Source: a virus (Duplodnaviria > Heunggongvirae > Uroviricota > Caudoviricetes). From it: a DNA stretch of 64,000 nt. This document shows, one piece after another, positions 39,911-49,229 of the stretch. Every line of letters starts with the position of its first letter. Position 1 is the stretch's first letter. The stretch is from IMG/VR virus record IMGVR_UViG_2565956721_000002. One strand, written 5' to 3'. Below the pieces are notes generated by a model. It was not told the origin of the DNA, made no database searches, and saw nothing but the letters and a program-made list of their open reading frames with translations. The translations under genes and the position numbers were made by a program.

Positions 39911-40552
39911 ATGGATAAGAAAATATGCGTTGTTTCGATGAGCGTCGGCAAACCGGCGTCAATGACTGCTGCATGGATCAACAACGAGCTGATAATGGCT
40001 GAGCGGACCAGCTACCCTGAACGCCGCCGCGATATGGAACTCCAGCTGCTGCGCGAATTGCGAGAAAAAGAGGAAAAGGGTTTTATCGTGCTGGTGGAAG
40101 AGGAAAACAGCTTTATTACTGGTCGAGTTGGCCAGCGTGTAAGGTTGCGCGATCCCTTCATGAACGGCAGGCCGGTACTAATTGAGGCAATGCAGATTTA
40201 TAAGGAGCTGGAACGCCAGAAAGCAATCAAGTTACCGCGCAAGGAATCCGGCAAATACATCCTCCACCAAAGCATCTTCGATTCCGAACACGATAAAAAA
40301 GGCGATGAATTTTTCAACATCAACTGGAGCGAAATAACGACAGAGCATGTTCTGACGTTACTATGTTGCTTTGCGACGGAATACAACAACGTTGCCAGCG
40401 CCGACTACATCAGGGCAATGGCTTGTGAAGTGGATAGTCGTGATGACTCATCGCTGATAGCGTCATATATAAACATCATCAAGAAAACTCAAATTATGGG
40501 ATGCGCTAGAGTTCCTCAAGGAATACTCACCGGAAAGAATAATATTCTATAA
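39911..40552 (+). CDS. hypothetical protein at the P1 mat (particle maturation) position
   Basis: internal ATG 39911 of track ORF 39884..40552; sits between ref and the cargo slot; preceded by a hairpin plus T-run at about 39870-39900; identity with Mat not verified. Confidence 0.45.
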   Translation: MDKKICVVSMSVGKPASMTAAWINNELIMAERTSYPERRRDMELQLLRELREKEEKGFIVLVEEENSFITGRVGQRVRLRDPFMNGRPVLIEAMQIYKELERQKAIKLPRKESGKYILHQSIFDSEHDKKGDEFFNINWSEITTEHVLTLLCCFATEYNNVASADYIRAMACEVDSRDDSSLIASYINIIKKTQIMGCARVPQGILTGKNNIL

Positions 40553-40595
40553 CCTACGAAGGTTATTTGTTACTTTCTGCGTAAACCCACAACTC

Positions 40596-40617
40596 ACCTT
40601 CCTAAGTTAAGGAAGGT
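40596..40617 (+). terminator. hairpin terminator between the mat-like gene and the cargo gene
   Basis: ACCTTCC-TAAGTTA-GGAAGGT followed by ATTTAT. Confidence 0.5.
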
Positions 40618-40649
40618 ATTTATCATGAAGTTTAGACATAAGCGTATTA

Positions 40650-41690
40650 TTACATGGGATTAACCACAACCTTTCCATATATATCAAGTTTTGATTGTAA
40701 TACGTTGAGGTGAGACAATTCTTTATTCGAACTAACTTTATCTAAAATTATATTTTTATCTTTTTCAGTCATGTTATACCCTAAGGTAATTTGCTTGAAT
40801 GCAGAAAAAGGAATTTTCTTTAAGTTAATTTCATGATAGTCATGAAAAACATCAGGATACTCATTTAATAGGCAATCATCAATCGATGGAGAGACAATGC
40901 TTCCTATTTTTCTCTCGCAATCAGCCAATGGAAAAATAATTCTACTTTCATTTTCAGGAAGCCACTCTTCACCTTTTGTATAAAGAAGCCTATTAATAAA
41001 AAGCTCGCGAACTGAATCTCGATTTAAGATCCCATGCAATGTATTATCTTTATTCTTTATATCTATATTCCTCGATGGCGCAGGATAGCCATTAAATCGC
41101 ACAGCGCCTTTATAATAGGTTACAGATGCTCTATCTTCTGGATTATAACTAACATCACACGGCCGATATATTTTGAAAAAATCGTGTGTTTCATCGAAAA
41201 CTACAGCAAACCCCTTTCCTATCGATGCATAATGAGTCCACATGTGTAGATTGCAATCACTTTTTGATAGAGAGAACACACCAAGATGACAGCTTACGGC
41301 TTCTACTAAATAATCGTTAAGGTACGTTACTATTTCTTGGAGTTTAGATTCATCATATGAATCCATTGAGGTAAAACCTTCATTGATTAACAAGTGTGGA
41401 AAATCCTCTCCGTATCGTTTCCCGCAAGGTTTTAAATAATACTCTAACTCTTGTATAGATGGGACATAAGATGGATCTCGTTGCATTTTCTTAAATTCAT
41501 TTCTAGCCCATGCGTAATCGGCTGGTGAAAATTTATTAAAAAATGGAAGAAGTCGCGACTCACTCGACGGATCATTAAGATACTTTGGTTGCGTTGCTCT
41601 AAAGAAACCATCCTCCAGACAAGATGTTCTAATGTGCATGCCCGGCCAAGGTTTATCCATATAACTCTCGCCTATATATTTAACTAACAC
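40650..41690 (-). CDS. DUF2971-like protein, AT-rich cargo gene in the slot occupied by res-mod in prototype P1
   Basis: 346 aa, GTG start is the first in-frame start; N-terminal LVKYIG...FRATQPKYLNDPSSE and central FSLSKSDCNLHMWTHYASIGKGFAVVFDE match motifs I associate with DUF2971; visibly AT-rich versus flanks; bounded by hairpins. Confidence 0.6.
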   Translation of the reverse strand: MLVKYIGESYMDKPWPGMHIRTSCLEDGFFRATQPKYLNDPSSESRLLPFFNKFSPADYAWARNEFKKMQRDPSYVPSIQELEYYLKPCGKRYGEDFPHLLINEGFTSMDSYDESKLQEIVTYLNDYLVEAVSCHLGVFSLSKSDCNLHMWTHYASIGKGFAVVFDETHDFFKIYRPCDVSYNPEDRASVTYYKGAVRFNGYPAPSRNIDIKNKDNTLHGILNRDSVRELFINRLLYTKGEEWLPENESRIIFPLADCERKIGSIVSPSIDDCLLNEYPDVFHDYHEINLKKIPFSAFKQITLGYNMTEKDKNIILDKVSSNKELSHLNVLQSKLDIYGKVVVNPM

Positions 41691-41711
41691 TGTATATCGA
41701 TCCTGTTGTTT

Positions 41712-41732
41712 AAGCCCATATCATATGGGCTT
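41712..41732. promoter_or_regulatory. perfect palindrome between lxc stop and cargo gene start
   Basis: AAGCCCATAT-C-ATATGGGCTT, about 22 bp upstream of the 41690 start; contains TATGAT; no flanking T-tract. Confidence 0.4.
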
Positions 41733-41742
41733 TAAATGATTA

Positions 41743-41991
41743 TTAATCAGCATTCAGAAGCAATGCGTTATCTATGATGATCTGCTCCCATTCTTCGAAT
41801 GCCCGATCGCGGACACCTTGGGGAACACTGTTAGTTTTGAAATCGACGACCGTCCGCCATTTCCCGTCCGGGCGGTACATGCGCAGAGCTTTACTTCCCC
41901 CTTCCCTGCGCACCTCAACGTTGTGCTTGTCAGCAAACTCTTGTAATGCTCGTAGCGTCCCATGCTTTACTGTGTAGTATCGCTTTTTCAA
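41743..41991 (-). CDS. lxc: small protein at the P1 lxc position
   Basis: 82 aa, last gene of the darB-ulx-lxc arrangement; 4-nt overlap with upstream gene; named by position and size only. Confidence 0.5.
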   Translation of the reverse strand: MKKRYYTVKHGTLRALQEFADKHNVEVRREGGSKALRMYRPDGKWRTVVDFKTNSVPQGVRDRAFEEWEQIIIDNALLLNAD

Positions 41992-42428
41992 GTTTTCTCT
42001 CCAGCCTGTGCTAAGGCTTCAACTTCCAAATCGTAAGACTCAAACTCATAGTCCTGGTCGTCAACCTCTTCAGGTACTGGCAGTAAATGCCAGGCTGAGT
42101 ATATCTGACCATTATCAAAACGCTCCTGGCTGTAGAGCGTCGCAGCTATGAGTGTCAGCGCCGGGCGGTCATAACGGTAAATTTTGCGAACGTCACGGTC
42201 AACGAGACGACCGAAATTACCATAACCGCGCTCCAGTAATAATTTTTTAATTTCCGGCCAGTATGGGCCATAGCTGCGGTACAGGCGGGGATTTTTCAGT
42301 AATCGCCCGCGTAGCCCTGACAGGAAGAAATCAACGTATTCGTCTTCTGTCTTTCCTAACAACGCTGTACGGAGTACCGCCTCAAGATATGTTTTATTCG
42401 GTTTTATTGTATCAGATAGTGTGGCCAT
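41988..42428 (-). CDS. ulx: protein at the P1 ulx position
   Basis: 146 aa immediately downstream of darB on the same strand; named by position and size only. Confidence 0.5.
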   Translation of the reverse strand: MATLSDTIKPNKTYLEAVLRTALLGKTEDEYVDFFLSGLRGRLLKNPRLYRSYGPYWPEIKKLLLERGYGNFGRLVDRDVRKIYRYDRPALTLIAATLYSQERFDNGQIYSAWHLLPVPEEVDDQDYEFESYDLEVEALAQAGEKT

Positions 42429-42461: not shown

Positions 42462-45400
42462 TTATGCGTATTGTTGGATGACGGCCAGAACGTCCGCCAC
42501 GTTGTGTTTTGTCTCGATAATCCACCAGTTACCCGGGAAATCGCTGTTCTTCGCCTTCGCTGGCAGCCAGCGAGCGCCGAATTTCGCCTTGATTGCGTCT
42601 TTCGCACGGAAAAGAACGCCTTTCATGCCTGAGGCTTCCTGAAGCCCAAATACCTCGCCAGCGGCGAATTTTGGTGCGTACATCATCTTCAGGTCGGCGG
42701 TGGATACGCGATAATTCAGACCAAGAGACTGAGCTATGCTGGTGGCATCACCCTGTATTGATGATAACTCTTCTTGTTTCTCGTTTCTGGCGGCAATTTC
42801 TTCCTCCGTGATGTTGCCAAGGGCCAGGTTTATCCGATCAGCGTCGGCCTGTTTCTCTTCATCGGTGCGCCCGGCAAGAACCGTGTTAATTCTCTGCAAT
42901 ATCTCCACATGATTCTTGCGCATGCTGAGCAATTCCGGCGTAACCTCGTTAAGATCCACCAGCCCAAGGATGGCAAGGTCGGAAAACATTGATACCAGGT
43001 TGTAGGTCATGCGATAGCTGAGTTGGCCATAGGCTGATGGCAACTGCACCGCATCCATTTGATAGGCATCCATAAATTTAGAGCCGTCGTTTACGACATC
43101 CGCAATTGCAGGTGTGATTTTCCCTGTGGTGGCGGCCTCCCTGATTGCTGTTACCCATGATTGAGTCAGTGCGGCGACTGCATGATTCAGATTGGCTTCC
43201 CGTTCTGCTGCGATGCGCGCGCTTGCTGAGTCCATTGCCTGCTTGATCTCGGCTTTATTGCTGTAAATGCCAATGGTGCCAAACTGTGCTGTGGTGATCT
43301 CATAATCTGACGCCCGGAACTCATGGGTACCGAAAATGGCATTGGTGACCTCAAGTTCAGAATCCCCGTTACGAGTAGCCCCCTGGCTTGCTTTCTCCGG
43401 CATTTTTGCGATCGCATCCGCTATTTTCTCCTGAATTGCTTCAGGGGATAGCGTATCTCCGTATGACGCGATTACATCGCCATAATTGGAGCCAAACAAT
43501 TCAACCAGGAATGTTTCTGCCGAACGGATCTGGCGGTTATTCCCTTCCGACATCATACCAAGCACCCATTTTGCAATTGACGACTTCAGCGCGCCGTCAC
43601 GGCGATCCGGGTAAACCGCATGCTTCAGTGGGGCCGTATAGGAACCAACAAAATCAATGCTATAGCCTGACTCTGTAGTCTGAACGCCGTATGAGTCAGT
43701 GATTTTGATCATGCCGCGCTGCTGGAAACGGTAGAAATCGTCACAGGAAATGATGTCGTTAATCCCGGCGATGGAGACGCCACCACTGATTTTCTGCATA
43801 ACAGCATCTTCATCGGGAGTTACATCAACCTGTTTATCCAGCGTCTTCACATCCCAGTTACCCGATTTGGTGCCTTTGAAGGTAAAGATGATCTCCACGT
43901 CTGCGCGCTGGCTGTCGAAGTCCAGCGACTTAATGCGAACGATATCACCGGCACAATCATAGTATTGGCCTACACGCCATGAGCGATCGCCGATAACAAG
44001 GAACTCATTCGCATGGTTAACCAGATCAGGATCAACATCCAGAATGCCTTTATTTATTGCATCCTCCACCAGCGGGCGCAGGCGTTTGATATCCGTCGCG
44101 GCCTTCTGAGTACGGTTCAATAATTTCTCATAGCGGGAGATGGCCTGAGAGATATTAGCCTTGCGCTGAATGGCGCTTTTCAACGACGCGCGATACTGTG
44201 CTAACAACATACGGTCTGTGTGATGGACGCTACCCCAGCGGGCTTTCCAGTCTGCGTTATCAGCTGCTTTGGCCATTACCGCCTGTTTGAATTTGGCGAC
44301 GTCGGCGGTGGTCTTTTCAAGTTCCGCTTTGCTTCGCTCCAATTCAGCGGTAAGTACCTCCACATCCTCACCAGCTGCGTGCTGCGCCTTGATGTAGTTC
44401 TGAAGGTCGATAGTAGCCTGTTCTTTCTGGCGAGCGCGTTTCGCAGCTTTCGCCTTATCCATTTGAACCTGCATCATTACCAGACGTTCGCCGTCATCCT
44501 TCGCGGTATACATCTGCATTTCGATCATGTCATTGGCGTCGGCGTTCTCCATTTCTGACTTATCTGAACGGAGGATATCGGAGATCCAGCCTGCTTTACG
44601 CTTCAGCGTCTTCAGTCGGTATTCATCGAAAGACCCCTTGCCGCAGTAGTAGTGAACGCGAACGCTTGCACGGTTGGAGCCAACTCGTGCACCGCGACCG
44701 TTACGTTGTGCGATACTGGCTGGTGTCCACGGCAACGTCAGGTGGTGGATATCCGTCGTTCCTCGATGCAGGTTGATACCCACCTCTGCCTTTTTGTTGC
44801 AGATGATGATCGGAGTCCGGCCCTCCTGGAAGTCGGCAGCAATCTTTTCCAGCCCACCCAGCGACATTTCATTTTGCTGCGCGATATAGGCGTCATACAG
44901 AGCCATTTGCTCGTTGTATTTCGCTATCTGTGCATCTGTTGGTTCATCCGGTAGCTCTTTCGGCGGTTTAACCGCTTTCAGTTTCTTACCGGTTTTACCT
45001 GCCTCGGCAACCGTCTGAGCATTCAGGATCCCCACCTTTGAAGGTTCAAGGTTAAGAGCATTGCAGATAATGCGCTTGAGCTTCTGGTGTTGCGTTTTTT
45101 CATCGGTGAAGATGATTTGCTTACCTTCCGGGAAAAACTCCTTCAGCGTGGCAATCAGCTTCGCGTATTTGGGCGTAACGGGGTGAGTTACGGTCTGTTC
45201 GTCAATGCCAAACTTGGCCAGGCGCTTATTCACTTCCTGCTCAAATGCTTCCGGTACCTGCAACTGAATAAACTCGCCCTTATCTATCAGGGAGTATTGC
45301 GATTGCTGCGTGATCGAATCATCACTGTCGTCGTCTTCGCTGGTGGCTTGTTTAGGCAAACTGTCCGCCAGCTGCTGCACCGCATCGGCGTACTCCGGCA

Positions 45401-48400
45401 GGAAACGATAGGTGATCCTGCGATAGTACAGGTCCATGTCAGTACATACGCGGTCCATATCCCTGATTATTGAGAAGATCGGACGGGCTTTCTCGTGCTC
45501 AATCACGCCGTCTTCATTGACCGAGGTCGTTACGCCATTGTTGGCTTTGGCTGCCGCTTCCGCCTGCTGACGCAATTCTTCATACGCCGCCAGTTGTTCT
45601 TCCGTAAGTGGTGCATCCTGCTGGTGTTCGTCCAGTTCCGGGATCTCCACGGTATCCTTAACGTCTTCCGCCGTTTTAAGCGTTGTCCAGCGATGGAATA
45701 TGCCGCGCAGCGCATCAAGGTTTTCAAAGCCCACCAGCGCCATTTTTTCTTCAACTTCACCGCTGATTTTCTGTACCGTTTCCAGCCTGGTCTTGCCGAA
45801 GAATTTAACGAAGTCATCAGGACCGTAGATCCCCATCTTCTGCCAGTATTCCTTCGGCAGCACATGAGAAAGCATGTTGTATGCATCGATCGGGGTGTTA
45901 ACGACTGGCGTTGCAGTCAGGAGAACCGGTCCGCGCCCACCATTCTTTTTCATCAGGTACGCGTTTTTAATTGCCATATCCCGCGCCGATTGCGCCACCG
46001 CGCTGGTGGGCAGATAGGCCAGTTGTGACGCTTCGCGACCATTTTTATAGCTATTGCGGTAGTTGTGACCTTCGTCAGCGATCACACTATCGAAGCCCAT
46101 ATCCTCAAAGTACGGATACTTCTCTGCTTTTTCGGTGCCGGTATCTGAATACTCCGACAATACCCGGCGACGCGCGGCCTCTTTGCGGTGGGAGTCGGAG
46201 TCCATTGCGCTGGCTACGCGCCCGGCGGCAACGAAGTCATAAAGCATATCCTGTGCATGCTCATCTACGGTGTCATCACGTAGCGGAATGCGGGCGTATT
46301 GTTCTTTGGTAAACACGACTGCACGGTAATTTGAGTGCGGGATCGCGTTCATCCGCGCCGTGATAGTGGCTTCATCTGCCAGTTTTAGGGCATCGCGCAT
46401 AACTGGAGTGCCATCAGTACCAAGAACAGGTTTACCGTTCTCATCGAGCACCGGCACCTGGCGAATCTGATCGCCATCCATCAGCACATCAAGACCGACG
46501 AACAGGTAGTTACTGAATGCCTCTTCACTCAGGAATTCTTTTGCTTCGTAATACCAGTTTTCCAGCACTGATTTAGGCACTACATACGCAGTACGGGTGG
46601 AGCGACCGTTCTCATAGTTGAACGCCTCAAGCGCCAGCGCGGTCGTAGTTTTACCCAGCCCGGTGCCGAAGCCCAGGATGCCGCGCCCATCTTCGGACAG
46701 TCGGCGCACTTCGCTATTCTGGTAATCAAATGGCTGGCGCTTACCGCTTAATCCCTTCAACCCAAGCGGATCGCCAGAGTGTTCATACGGGATATTGCTA
46801 TTGAACACATCGTTGTATTTGGCAACCAGTTCATCGTAGCGATCGTGCGTCTTGATCCACTTATTGAACTGGTCCTCAAGCAGTGCCATCTGCTCGCGGT
46901 AGCCGTTCGCCGTCGCGCTATCTTTGCCACCGATACGCGCACCATTGAGATACTTTTCCAGCTGTGCCGGGAACCCGGTCGCGTTTTCACCTGATTTACG
47001 GTCCCACTCGTAGCGGATCTCGCCTGTTTCTTTATCCTTGCGCTGGACGACACCGTATCGGTGCCCGACGAACAGGCCATCACCACCGTGATAGGTGTCA
47101 GAAACCATTTCGTCGCCTTCCAGCTGCACTGACTGCACATAGCGCAGATCCGGATAGCCCTTTTCCTGCAAAAACTCCAGAATGACGGAACGGTCGAACC
47201 AACGGCTATTGAGCTTAAACCGGATATTCTCTGCTGGCGTCTTGATGCGCTTCTCTTCGATCGCTGCCAGCTGATTAAGGACGTTGTTCTTTACTGGACC
47301 GTCGGGGAGCGTGGCGAGGAATTCCTGTTTTGGAGCCACTATCTCGTTAATGTCGCCGCTGGTGGCGCGGGCGAACGGAACAATCCCGCCATACGGTGAA
47401 ACCGCAATACCAGGAGTGCTGGCCAATAAATTAAGCAACTCTTCATCACTGGCTGGCAATTCGCCGGTAAACGCAAGGCGGAAATCATCGAGCTGGATTG
47501 GATCGCGGGTAAGATCGCTATAGAGATAACGCAGGGTGTCCTGATAGCTGGTGGAGTCATAACTGGCGCTGGAATCATGCGTAACCAGCTTTCCTGTCAG
47601 CTCGTCAGAAATAGTGCCATCCAGCTTAATTGCACCACGGAAAGCAAACCAGGCGCGCGCACCGCTTCCCGATAATTTAGCTATCGGACCGCGACCAGGG
47701 TTACCAAAACGGTCAATCTCTGCCTGCAAACGGGATACCAGAGAAAGGCGCTGCTGTTCGATTTGTTCAGCACTATGCCCGGCGGCCTTCATATCCTGAT
47801 ATTCAATTAACATCCGGCCAATCATCGCCCCACGATACAAGCGTTCACGGTATTTTTCAGGCTGGCTGTTAATCCAGTCCACCAGCTGCACCATATCGTC
47901 GCTGATTGATGTGGTGTACTTATCGCGGACATTTGCCATCTGGGTAAATGTCATACCGAGACGGCCTTCTGTTGTAGTCAGGTTACGCTGAAGAGCCTCC
48001 CAGCTATCCGCGCCATAACTGGCAGCATCAATTTTAAGTTCCTTCCCGGCATCAGCTTCAATCCAGCGACCACCAGCATATTTTTGCCATACGCCATTAA
48101 TCAGGCGCATTTCCCCTTCACCAACAACGTCTGCGGTCAGTGACGGTTCAGCCATATCGAGCAAAGACCAGTCGATACGGCTTTCGAAACGATGAATCAG
48201 CTTCGCTTTAAGAGCCTGGTTATCAATCTGACCGTCGGCACGAACCTCAATACGCCCCTGGAAGCCCTTTTCCTGGGTGCCATGAACAAACCGGCGGCCA
48301 TCCTTTTCAAACCACTTGCCAGAAATAAACGTTGGCCAAAGCACATTTGCCGATTCAAGAGTGCTTTCATCCACCAGGGGGATTTTCTCAGCCATCTCTG

Positions 48401-49229
48401 CCGGATGTTTGCGCATCAGCACCACATCAACGACTGTACTGGTCCCGTTTGCGTCAAAAGTACCGGTAGGCAAGCGGTGGGCACCAAGAAATTCAGCTTT
48501 CCGTGATAGGCGCAGGCGTAACCGCTTCATGTTTGAACCTGAAACAATGGACGGCGGCACAATCACGCACATGAATCCGCCTGGCTTTATCTTGTCCAGC
48601 ATGCGGAGCATGAAGTAAGAACCCATGTCCGTTTCTTCTGCGTAAGGCTTATCGATGTTGCGTGTGTTATCACGACCGCCGAACGGAACGTTACCCACAA
48701 CATGGTCGAATGAATCGTTAGGCGTGCTTATAGCCAGCTGTTCGAACGGGGAAATCTGTACGCTGTCTTCCGGGTGTAACAACTGGTTTATACGACCGGA
48801 AACACTGCTGATCTCAGTCGCGGTCATCACCGTACCAACCGGTTTTGTCTCATTAAAAACGCCGGTTCCCGCCGATGGTTCCAGAGTGTTACCTACGTCC
48901 GCGCCGTAGAGCTTCATGATCTCCCAGACACCTTCAGCGATCGGCTTTGGTGTGTAATATTCGGAGACGGACCCGCCAATGCCGCCTTCACCGGTGTACC
49001 CAGCCAGGATCTGGCGCTGTTCATCTGTCAGTGTCGCGCCGTCCACCAGCGAATTAAGCAAATCAATCGCCTTCTGATTCGCCTCCCGGCGTAGTCGGTC
49101 ATAGCTTTTGCCTTCCACCTTTTCCACGCCGTATCTAATCGGCGCTCGGTGAGATGTTATTGCCCTAATGTATTTCAATATTTCGCTGACACTTGAACAG
49201 CGAAACACCCCCATAGATAGCTTGTTCAT
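42462..49229 (-). CDS. darB: antirestriction protein DarB (N6-adenine methyltransferase fused to SF2 helicase)
   Basis: 2255 aa (P1 DarB length); AAGGA RBS; N-terminal MTase motifs (SAGTGVF, GNVPFGG); central helicase motifs (GFGTGLGKTT, IADEGHNYRN). Confidence 0.85.
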   Translation of the reverse strand: MNKLSMGVFRCSSVSEILKYIRAITSHRAPIRYGVEKVEGKSYDRLRREANQKAIDLLNSLVDGATLTDEQRQILAGYTGEGGIGGSVSEYYTPKPIAEGVWEIMKLYGADVGNTLEPSAGTGVFNETKPVGTVMTATEISSVSGRINQLLHPEDSVQISPFEQLAISTPNDSFDHVVGNVPFGGRDNTRNIDKPYAEETDMGSYFMLRMLDKIKPGGFMCVIVPPSIVSGSNMKRLRLRLSRKAEFLGAHRLPTGTFDANGTSTVVDVVLMRKHPAEMAEKIPLVDESTLESANVLWPTFISGKWFEKDGRRFVHGTQEKGFQGRIEVRADGQIDNQALKAKLIHRFESRIDWSLLDMAEPSLTADVVGEGEMRLINGVWQKYAGGRWIEADAGKELKIDAASYGADSWEALQRNLTTTEGRLGMTFTQMANVRDKYTTSISDDMVQLVDWINSQPEKYRERLYRGAMIGRMLIEYQDMKAAGHSAEQIEQQRLSLVSRLQAEIDRFGNPGRGPIAKLSGSGARAWFAFRGAIKLDGTISDELTGKLVTHDSSASYDSTSYQDTLRYLYSDLTRDPIQLDDFRLAFTGELPASDEELLNLLASTPGIAVSPYGGIVPFARATSGDINEIVAPKQEFLATLPDGPVKNNVLNQLAAIEEKRIKTPAENIRFKLNSRWFDRSVILEFLQEKGYPDLRYVQSVQLEGDEMVSDTYHGGDGLFVGHRYGVVQRKDKETGEIRYEWDRKSGENATGFPAQLEKYLNGARIGGKDSATANGYREQMALLEDQFNKWIKTHDRYDELVAKYNDVFNSNIPYEHSGDPLGLKGLSGKRQPFDYQNSEVRRLSEDGRGILGFGTGLGKTTTALALEAFNYENGRSTRTAYVVPKSVLENWYYEAKEFLSEEAFSNYLFVGLDVLMDGDQIRQVPVLDENGKPVLGTDGTPVMRDALKLADEATITARMNAIPHSNYRAVVFTKEQYARIPLRDDTVDEHAQDMLYDFVAAGRVASAMDSDSHRKEAARRRVLSEYSDTGTEKAEKYPYFEDMGFDSVIADEGHNYRNSYKNGREASQLAYLPTSAVAQSARDMAIKNAYLMKKNGGRGPVLLTATPVVNTPIDAYNMLSHVLPKEYWQKMGIYGPDDFVKFFGKTRLETVQKISGEVEEKMALVGFENLDALRGIFHRWTTLKTAEDVKDTVEIPELDEHQQDAPLTEEQLAAYEELRQQAEAAAKANNGVTTSVNEDGVIEHEKARPIFSIIRDMDRVCTDMDLYYRRITYRFLPEYADAVQQLADSLPKQATSEDDDSDDSITQQSQYSLIDKGEFIQLQVPEAFEQEVNKRLAKFGIDEQTVTHPVTPKYAKLIATLKEFFPEGKQIIFTDEKTQHQKLKRIICNALNLEPSKVGILNAQTVAEAGKTGKKLKAVKPPKELPDEPTDAQIAKYNEQMALYDAYIAQQNEMSLGGLEKIAADFQEGRTPIIICNKKAEVGINLHRGTTDIHHLTLPWTPASIAQRNGRGARVGSNRASVRVHYYCGKGSFDEYRLKTLKRKAGWISDILRSDKSEMENADANDMIEMQMYTAKDDGERLVMMQVQMDKAKAAKRARQKEQATIDLQNYIKAQHAAGEDVEVLTAELERSKAELEKTTADVAKFKQAVMAKAADNADWKARWGSVHHTDRMLLAQYRASLKSAIQRKANISQAISRYEKLLNRTQKAATDIKRLRPLVEDAINKGILDVDPDLVNHANEFLVIGDRSWRVGQYYDCAGDIVRIKSLDFDSQRADVEIIFTFKGTKSGNWDVKTLDKQVDVTPDEDAVMQKISGGVSIAGINDIISCDDFYRFQQRGMIKITDSYGVQTTESGYSIDFVGSYTAPLKHAVYPDRRDGALKSSIAKWVLGMMSEGNNRQIRSAETFLVELFGSNYGDVIASYGDTLSPEAIQEKIADAIAKMPEKASQGATRNGDSELEVTNAIFGTHEFRASDYEITTAQFGTIGIYSNKAEIKQAMDSASARIAAEREANLNHAVAALTQSWVTAIREAATTGKITPAIADVVNDGSKFMDAYQMDAVQLPSAYGQLSYRMTYNLVSMFSDLAILGLVDLNEVTPELLSMRKNHVEILQRINTVLAGRTDEEKQADADRINLALGNITEEEIAARNEKQEELSSIQGDATSIAQSLGLNYRVSTADLKMMYAPKFAAGEVFGLQEASGMKGVLFRAKDAIKAKFGARWLPAKAKNSDFPGNWWIIETKHNVADVLAVIQQYA

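Follow-up and report, generated by a model that had tools for sequence, protein, structure and literature searches.

Our results suggest that the perfect palindrome lying between lxc and the cargo gene of this P1-like phage-plasmid may work as a hairpin in the sense-strand RNA. We propose, tentatively, that it forms an intercistronic stem-loop without a U-tract, which would be either a leaky terminator or a protector of the 3' end of the lxc mRNA, the cargo gene being expressed by read-through. Three points are new: the palindrome belongs to the cargo, the borders of the exchanged cassette are exact, and the position directly after lxc is a slot in which hairpins recur. The palindrome itself is an ordinary feature at a known hotspot and not a new kind of element. 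The coordinates of the features, all referring to the window (the whole 64-kb stretch of DNA that was analysed), are collected in Table 1.

Table 1. Features in and around the exchanged cassette; positions are those of the window.
Feature	Position	Strand	Basis
Exchanged cassette (variable region)	40435..41742		Pairwise BLAST against 19 junction types
Second cassette hairpin, ACCTTCCT-AAGTTA-AGGAAGGT	40596..40617	+	Lies between the convergent mat and cargo genes
Cargo ORF, 346 aa, GTG start	40650..41690	-	PADLOC PDC-S31, DUF2971
Best sigma-70-like match of the 3-kb region, ATGACA-17 bp-AATAAT, 10/12	41286-41314	+	Scan
lxc-cargo intergenic region, 52 bp (10 nt, palindrome, 21-nt spacer)	41691..41742	-	Sequence
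Palindrome, AAGCCCATAT-N-ATATGGGCTT	41712..41732	-	Sequence, fold prediction
Weak promoter-like match, TTAATA-15 bp-TATGAT, 9/12	41720..41746	-	Looser scan only
lxc, C1 co-repressor/modulator	41743..41991	-	PHROG, DNA identity
ulx	41988-42428	-	PHROG, DNA identity
P1lxc equivalent, sigma-70 promoter	42036..42064	-	Sequence identical to P1
P2lxc equivalent, sigma-70 promoter	42214..42242	-	Sequence identical to P1
darB	42462-49229	-	PHROG, DNA identity

An earlier note on this DNA had named the genes upstream of the cargo darB, ulx and lxc. These names are correct, both by PHROG matches and by 97-99% DNA identity to the annotated genes of P1, P7 and their relatives. The gap between lxc and the cargo, which had been put at 50 bp with some 22 bp from the palindrome to the start codon, measures 52 bp, with 21 nt from the palindrome to the GTG. 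We took the GTG at 41690 and not the ATG at 41660 as the cargo start because the N-terminus it gives, MLVKYIG, fits the MLVKYYG that hardly varies among the homologues, the conserved form being MLVKY(Y/I)G. The spacer carries a Shine-Dalgarno-like AGGA at 41704-41701, 10 nt before the GTG. On the other side of the palindrome, lxc is closed by two in-frame stops (TAA TAA, 41740-41745), the second of which stands on the cassette side of the breakpoint; in other cassette types the lxc stop is TAA or TGA. Just upstream of the palindrome there is also an AT-rich stretch, GATTAATAATCATTTAAAG (41735-41756, minus strand). Aligned by hand, it agrees at about 11 of 19 positions with the 19-bp Fur-box consensus, which we take to be a chance likeness in AT-rich DNA.

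The palindrome, AAGCCCATAT-C-ATATGGGCTT, is perfect (10+1+10), as had been claimed, and the TATGAT reported within it is found on the minus strand at 41725-41720. When one mismatch is allowed the arms grow to 13 nt (41709-41735). No second copy was found in the 64-kb window with up to 3 mismatches tolerated, and none of the 100 shuffled controls gave a match. The window has 6 perfect inverted repeats whose arms are 10 nt or longer and whose loops do not exceed 6 nt; a first-order Markov model predicts 0.5. The class of strong hairpins is therefore non-random here. Across about 100 copies there is no variation within the palindrome; the only SNPs, at positions 41696 and 41700, both fall in the spacer.

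In the lxc-sense RNA the palindrome is predicted to fold into a 9-bp stem closed by a 3-nt loop, at -12.1 kcal/mol (z = -3.4); the plus-strand prediction reaches -14.7 kcal/mol (z = -4.1). The stem, 9-10 bp with 3 G-C pairs per arm and an AT-rich centre, begins 10 nt past the lxc stop. Note that the fold energy is moderate only: an energy at least as great as that of the palindrome is reached by about 19% of the 50-nt windows in the 64 kb, and by 3.5% of those with a GC content of 40% or less. A perfect palindrome is uninformative on which strand is active. Here the complementarity reaches the very centre, a property unnecessary in an RNA hairpin and commoner in dyads bound by proteins. A search of Rfam with the palindrome gave a chance-level match only.

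The palindrome had been judged a poor intrinsic terminator for want of a flanking U-tract. This judgement was borne out, as the scan reported the palindrome on neither strand. Like a canonical intrinsic terminator, it is a GC-containing stem-loop directly past a stop codon. It differs in its AT-rich stem centre and in its tails: with a U-tract defined as at least 5 of the 8 bases immediately 3' of the stem, the lxc-sense tail has none (AAACAACAGG; stem-adjacent AAACAACA), and the plus-strand tail is T-rich but interrupted (TTTAAATGATTATT; also given as TTTAAATG/TAAATGAT). True terminators with T-runs do occur in the same slot in sister cassettes, for example in L026, L044 and L075.

Transcription of lxc has been described as constitutive and outside C1 control (PMC8546580). 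Because the equivalents of both P1lxc and P2lxc are identical in the window to those of P1, transcripts should enter the palindrome in lysogens, and P1lxc is their likely source. In the lxc-sense RNA the palindrome would form a short stem-loop of 9-10 bp. Lacking a U-tract, this hairpin should terminate poorly, and it would pause or stop only a fraction of the transcripts that start at the constitutive lxc promoters. It would also block 3'-to-5' exonucleases and so stabilize the 3' end of the lxc mRNA. Read-through would then yield small amounts of the cargo protein, translated from a GTG start with a distant AGGA; it is favoured because the 21 nt of the spacer, which hold the AGGA, are too few to accommodate a separate promoter. 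What we show here is where the palindrome lies, that it belongs to the cassette, that it has the potential to fold, that hairpins recur in the slot and that the lxc promoters are conserved; we infer that it acts as RNA rather than as DNA, that it is a leaky terminator and that lxc and the cargo share a transcript.

Protective hairpins between cistrons are established in E. coli, at malE-malF and papBA, as are stem-loops without a U-tract at Rho-dependent 3' ends (PMC5927463, PMC6061677). As occurs in malE-malF and papB-papA, the palindrome would provide a stable local structure, devoid of a U-tract, between co-oriented genes and a few nucleotides past the upstream stop. This placement would suit two cistrons that differ in stability or in expression. 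The palindrome differs from those hairpins in its short stem (9-10 bp, -12 kcal/mol) and in being a single unique copy that is not a REP element. A REP-like element was considered and rejected, the palindrome being single-copy in the window and found elsewhere (plasmids, E. coli, IMG/VR, metagenomes) only in the context of the DUF2971 cassette.

The palindrome lies at the edge of an exchanged cassette. In megablast searches of phage records, the match of P1, P7, SJ46, RCS47 and others to the window ends at the lxc stop (41743, within a few bases), and just two records match on through the cargo. The break in homology at the lxc stop is seen in P1, in P7 and in about 16 further P1-like phages, and the palindrome is 10 nt away from it. 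After the lxc TAA, P1 and P7 continue with ACTTCCCCAAATTATGG…, which is unrelated to the window from the first base. The GC content of the cassette is 29-39%, against 47-54% in the flanks. One of its edges is sharp, at the lxc stop, and the other falls within the last ~118 nt of mat. This segment of mat (40435-40552, about 39 codons) is variable, with alleles of 213 and 250 aa, and the C-termini of Mat therefore differ between cassettes. Between mat and the cargo, the second hairpin is followed on the plus strand by ATTTATCATG and, by its sequence, looks like a terminator for mat. The lxc-mat variable region corresponds to the res-mod region, RD-1 of Venturini et al. (PMC6906374). From these comparisons, the insert is best described as a one-gene DUF2971 cassette, horizontally acquired, that stands in for the EcoP1 res-mod genes of P1 between lxc and mat.

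The comparison of related junctions that the earlier note had proposed, asking whether the palindrome goes with the cargo or with lxc, gave a clear answer: it goes with the cargo, and it is absent from the lxc junctions that bear other cargo (about 13 types). Together with its flanks, the palindrome occurs in 90 plasmids, in 64 E. coli records, in 14 IMG/VR contigs and in at least 10 metagenome contigs. The plasmids with 100% identity include CP083412.1 and NZ_CP086223.1. Each copy adjoins this DUF2971 gene, save two that are remnants of the same cassette, namely one on E. coli H15 plasmid A, truncated by an IS1, and one in a chromosome, disrupted by an IS (L250). The H15 plasmid A copy (NZ_CP010179.1) was considered as a stand-alone palindrome and rejected, as it is such a remnant. 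There (L097:4248-5038) the IS1 abuts the equivalent of position 41705, 7 nt past the palindrome; the entire DUF2971 gene is gone, and lxc and the palindrome are kept.

The cargo domain is DUF2971 (Pfam), and the protein matches the PADLOC single-gene defence candidate PDC-S31 (E = 3.5e-16). An AlphaFold model of the cargo, built from 20 homologues (mean pLDDT 86), has a predicted DarT/Tpt1-like ADP-ribosyltransferase fold. In line with this, DUF2971 has been predicted to be a DarT/AbiGi-like ADP-ribosyltransferase in published work (PMC12522546). Outside the cassette, the closest cargo homologues are at most 54% identical. No comparable palindrome was found upstream of 9 cargo homologues of 36-50% protein identity (8 genomic ones and one Aeromonas plasmid copy, of 68% DNA identity), despite their long upstream regions. 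As far as these sequences indicate, the palindrome is not general to DUF2971 genes. The searches for a donor returned, in the IMG/VR scan for the palindrome, the same P1-like contigs only; in the metagenomes, among the matches listed, those that matched in the flanks were all P1-like and the rest were chance matches to a 16-base core.

We then surveyed the junction itself in 80 IMG/VR loci and ten further Lxc-encoding contigs, which gave 23 distinct sequences after the lxc stop, belonging to about 14 cassette types. The cargoes include a SIR2-like gene (PDC-S25/ThsA-like), a PIN_12/PIN_8 gene (PDC-S34-like), a YaaC pair, an acetyltransferase, an ANT/ORF6N gene, an EAL gene, EcoP1 mod-res and an 'empty' lxc-mat junction. 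Within the first 50 nt past the lxc stop, 18 of the 23 variants reach -12 kcal/mol or lower, with about 13 unrelated hairpins (background, 19%). The 'empty' junction has a hairpin too, and in one more cassette type the hairpin lies a little further downstream. The P1/P7 mod cassette is the only type without one (-7.4 kcal/mol). Only three or four of the slot hairpins carry a T-run, and that of the palindrome, at -12 kcal/mol, is the weakest among them. Most cassettes are convergent with lxc, and in these one would in any case expect a hairpin that terminates the cargo gene. The co-directional cases, which are the informative ones, number two or three only, including the DUF2971 and PIN cassettes. 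Moreover, since P1 and P7 have no hairpin past lxc, it is not needed for lxc function.

These results bear on the suggestion of the earlier note that the palindrome is a junction scar of cassette exchange. The palindrome does sit at a cassette-exchange junction, where homology ends at the lxc stop, but the term 'scar' does not fit, as almost all cassette types bring a strong hairpin of their own to this position. A hairpin that recurs at the same position points to a functional or structural slot and not to debris. A related explanation, which we consider unlikely although it fares best among the alternatives, is that the hairpin is a passenger without present function that arrived with a young cassette, for instance as the terminator of an upstream gene in the donor. 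The copies of the cassette are 98.5-100% identical, which would have left no time for decay; gene capture commonly brings flanking terminators along; the other end of the cassette also has a hairpin; and P1 and P7 manage without one at this place. Against this, the donor context was not found, the palindrome with its flanks occurring, among the matches listed, in P1-like contexts only and the other homologues being at most 54% identical. In addition, a hairpin is present in precisely this slot in about 13 cassette types, the two non-P1 co-directional ones among them, which argues for selection or for a mechanistic reason.

The same position in P1 and P7, right after lxc and before a co-directional defence gene, is organized in another way: the P1 lxc-mod gap is of about 150 bp, with the annotated promoters P1mod and P2mod and no strong hairpin, whereas here the gap is of 52 bp and its sequence is unrelated. 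In P1, P2mod overlaps the lxc stop. Its counterpart in the window has ACGCAT as -35 and TAATAA as -10 (TAAACT in P1), and the -35 is poor in P1 and in the window alike.

A close analogue of the palindrome is the hairpin of the PIN_12/PIN_8 (PDC-S34-like) cassette. In this cassette the lxc stop is followed by about 7 nt, a stem of about 10 bp without a U-tract, some 24 nt containing GAGGA or AGGA, and an ATG. Both junctions thus have a stop, 7-10 nt, a ~10-bp stem without a U-tract and 21-24 nt with a Shine-Dalgarno sequence, ahead of a co-directional candidate defence gene. The PIN hairpin differs in its unrelated sequence, its longer loop and its G·U pairs, by which it is a hairpin on one strand only and not a DNA palindrome. 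These pairs render it much more stable as lxc-sense than as antisense RNA (-17.0 against -7.7, and -19.7 against -15.0 kcal/mol), and a U·G-to-C-G change distinguishes its two alleles. The G·U pairs and the strand asymmetry therefore identify the PIN hairpin as a structure of the sense RNA. For the palindrome too, a sense-strand RNA structure is, by analogy, the simplest reading.

Another IMG/VR locus, of a different cassette type (L013:4250-4290), has a still longer perfect palindrome directly after lxc, CTATGCCTGGCT-A-AGCCAGGCATAG (12+1+12), so perfect dyads are not peculiar to the DUF2971 cassette. The 'empty' junction of L047 (4250-4290) is a hybrid of two types. From the 5' flank through the 5' arm to the loop it follows the L007 type (CAATTTTGCCCGGAATTACCGGGC); its 3' side is of the L021 type (ATCTTTCAGAGATAAT), and the crossover lies in the CCGGGCA arm common to both. 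Similarly, L021 and L252 have both arms in common and differ in the loop and in the downstream sequence. The L047 hybrid and the L021/L252 arms are the few pointers to an exchange guided by hairpins. It is a long shot that the hairpins at the lxc stop, besides forming the ends of transcripts, might be where the lxc-mat cassettes are gained, lost and swapped, by a hairpin- or terminator-guided capture of which the palindrome would be one boundary.

The earlier note had also raised the possibility of an operator for a dimeric regulator, and this fared poorly. In its most concrete form, a host or phage regulator would bind the dyad and repress the TTAATA-15 bp-TATGAT promoter, silencing a potentially toxic DarT-like gene until a signal arrives. 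The -10 of this promoter-like sequence is inside the palindrome, the sole layout that would permit the latter to be its operator. The perfect dyad symmetry with its 1-bp centre, the TATGAT core with a 9/12 promoter-like match, and a toxin-like ADP-ribosyltransferase fold encoded by a cassette without an antitoxin gene all speak for this idea. However, the match has a 15-bp spacer and a poor -35, and the standard scan, which found no sigma-70 promoter in or near the gap, missed it; nor are promoter-like matches in the 3-kb region above the level of shuffled sequences (3 against 6.4 expected). The one-gene cassette brings no regulator, and no cognate one was found nearby. The 64-kb window holds neither a second site nor an enrichment of the half-site, and the homologues elsewhere have no such dyad upstream, so that neither a repeated nor an ortholog-conserved site was found. 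An operator over this weak promoter is improbable.

Known sites gave no better fit. By eye, the palindrome has no likeness to loxP, whose layout is 13-8-13. The same is true of the -22 regions of the Lpa late promoters (LPpro, AAGTGACTA; LPlyz, AAGTGATTT) and of the C1 operator (ATTGCTCTAATAAATTT, quoted in PMC8546580), and these mismatches also count against an operator. An integron attC-like site would share with our junctions a palindrome bounding each cassette, given the hairpin beside the lxc stop in about 13 types; it was rejected, as such sites also have a conserved core on which one recombinase acts, and there is no core common to the arms, for example AAGCCCATAT, CTCCGGCCTA, CTATGCCTGGCT, TTAGGCCACT, CGGGCAG and GCCCGG. 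Elsewhere in the window, at 5074-5089, we noted a perfect 16-bp palindrome, CTAATAAATTTATTAG, resembling two overlapping core halves of the C1 operator (…CTAATAAATTT). By its sequence, this one may be a bivalent C1 operator.

The best sigma-70-like match of the 3-kb region lies within the cargo gene in the antisense orientation and faces both the 5' end of this gene and the palindrome; a cis-antisense RNA to the toxin-like gene could start from it. That the palindrome, followed by UUUAAAUGAUUAUU, would end such an RNA, which would cover the cargo 5' end and its ribosome-binding site, is very unlikely: the slightly stronger plus-strand fold (-14.7 kcal/mol, z = -4.1), the T-rich tail and the 10/12 promoter-like match facing the palindrome are in its favour, but the tail does not pass as a terminator in the scan, promoter-like matches are no commoner than in shuffled sequences, Rfam has no match and the analogous PIN hairpin is clearly a sense-strand one.

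Taken as a sense-strand hairpin, the palindrome suggests a probable route of expression for a candidate defence toxin carried on P1-like plasmids that are widespread in E. coli, Salmonella and Shigella: the constitutive lxc transcript, passing through a leaky hairpin. The exact borders of the exchanged cassette (40435-41742) are also gained, and the recurrent hairpin slot after lxc helps both the annotation of this defence hotspot and the design of reporters and knock-ins in P1.
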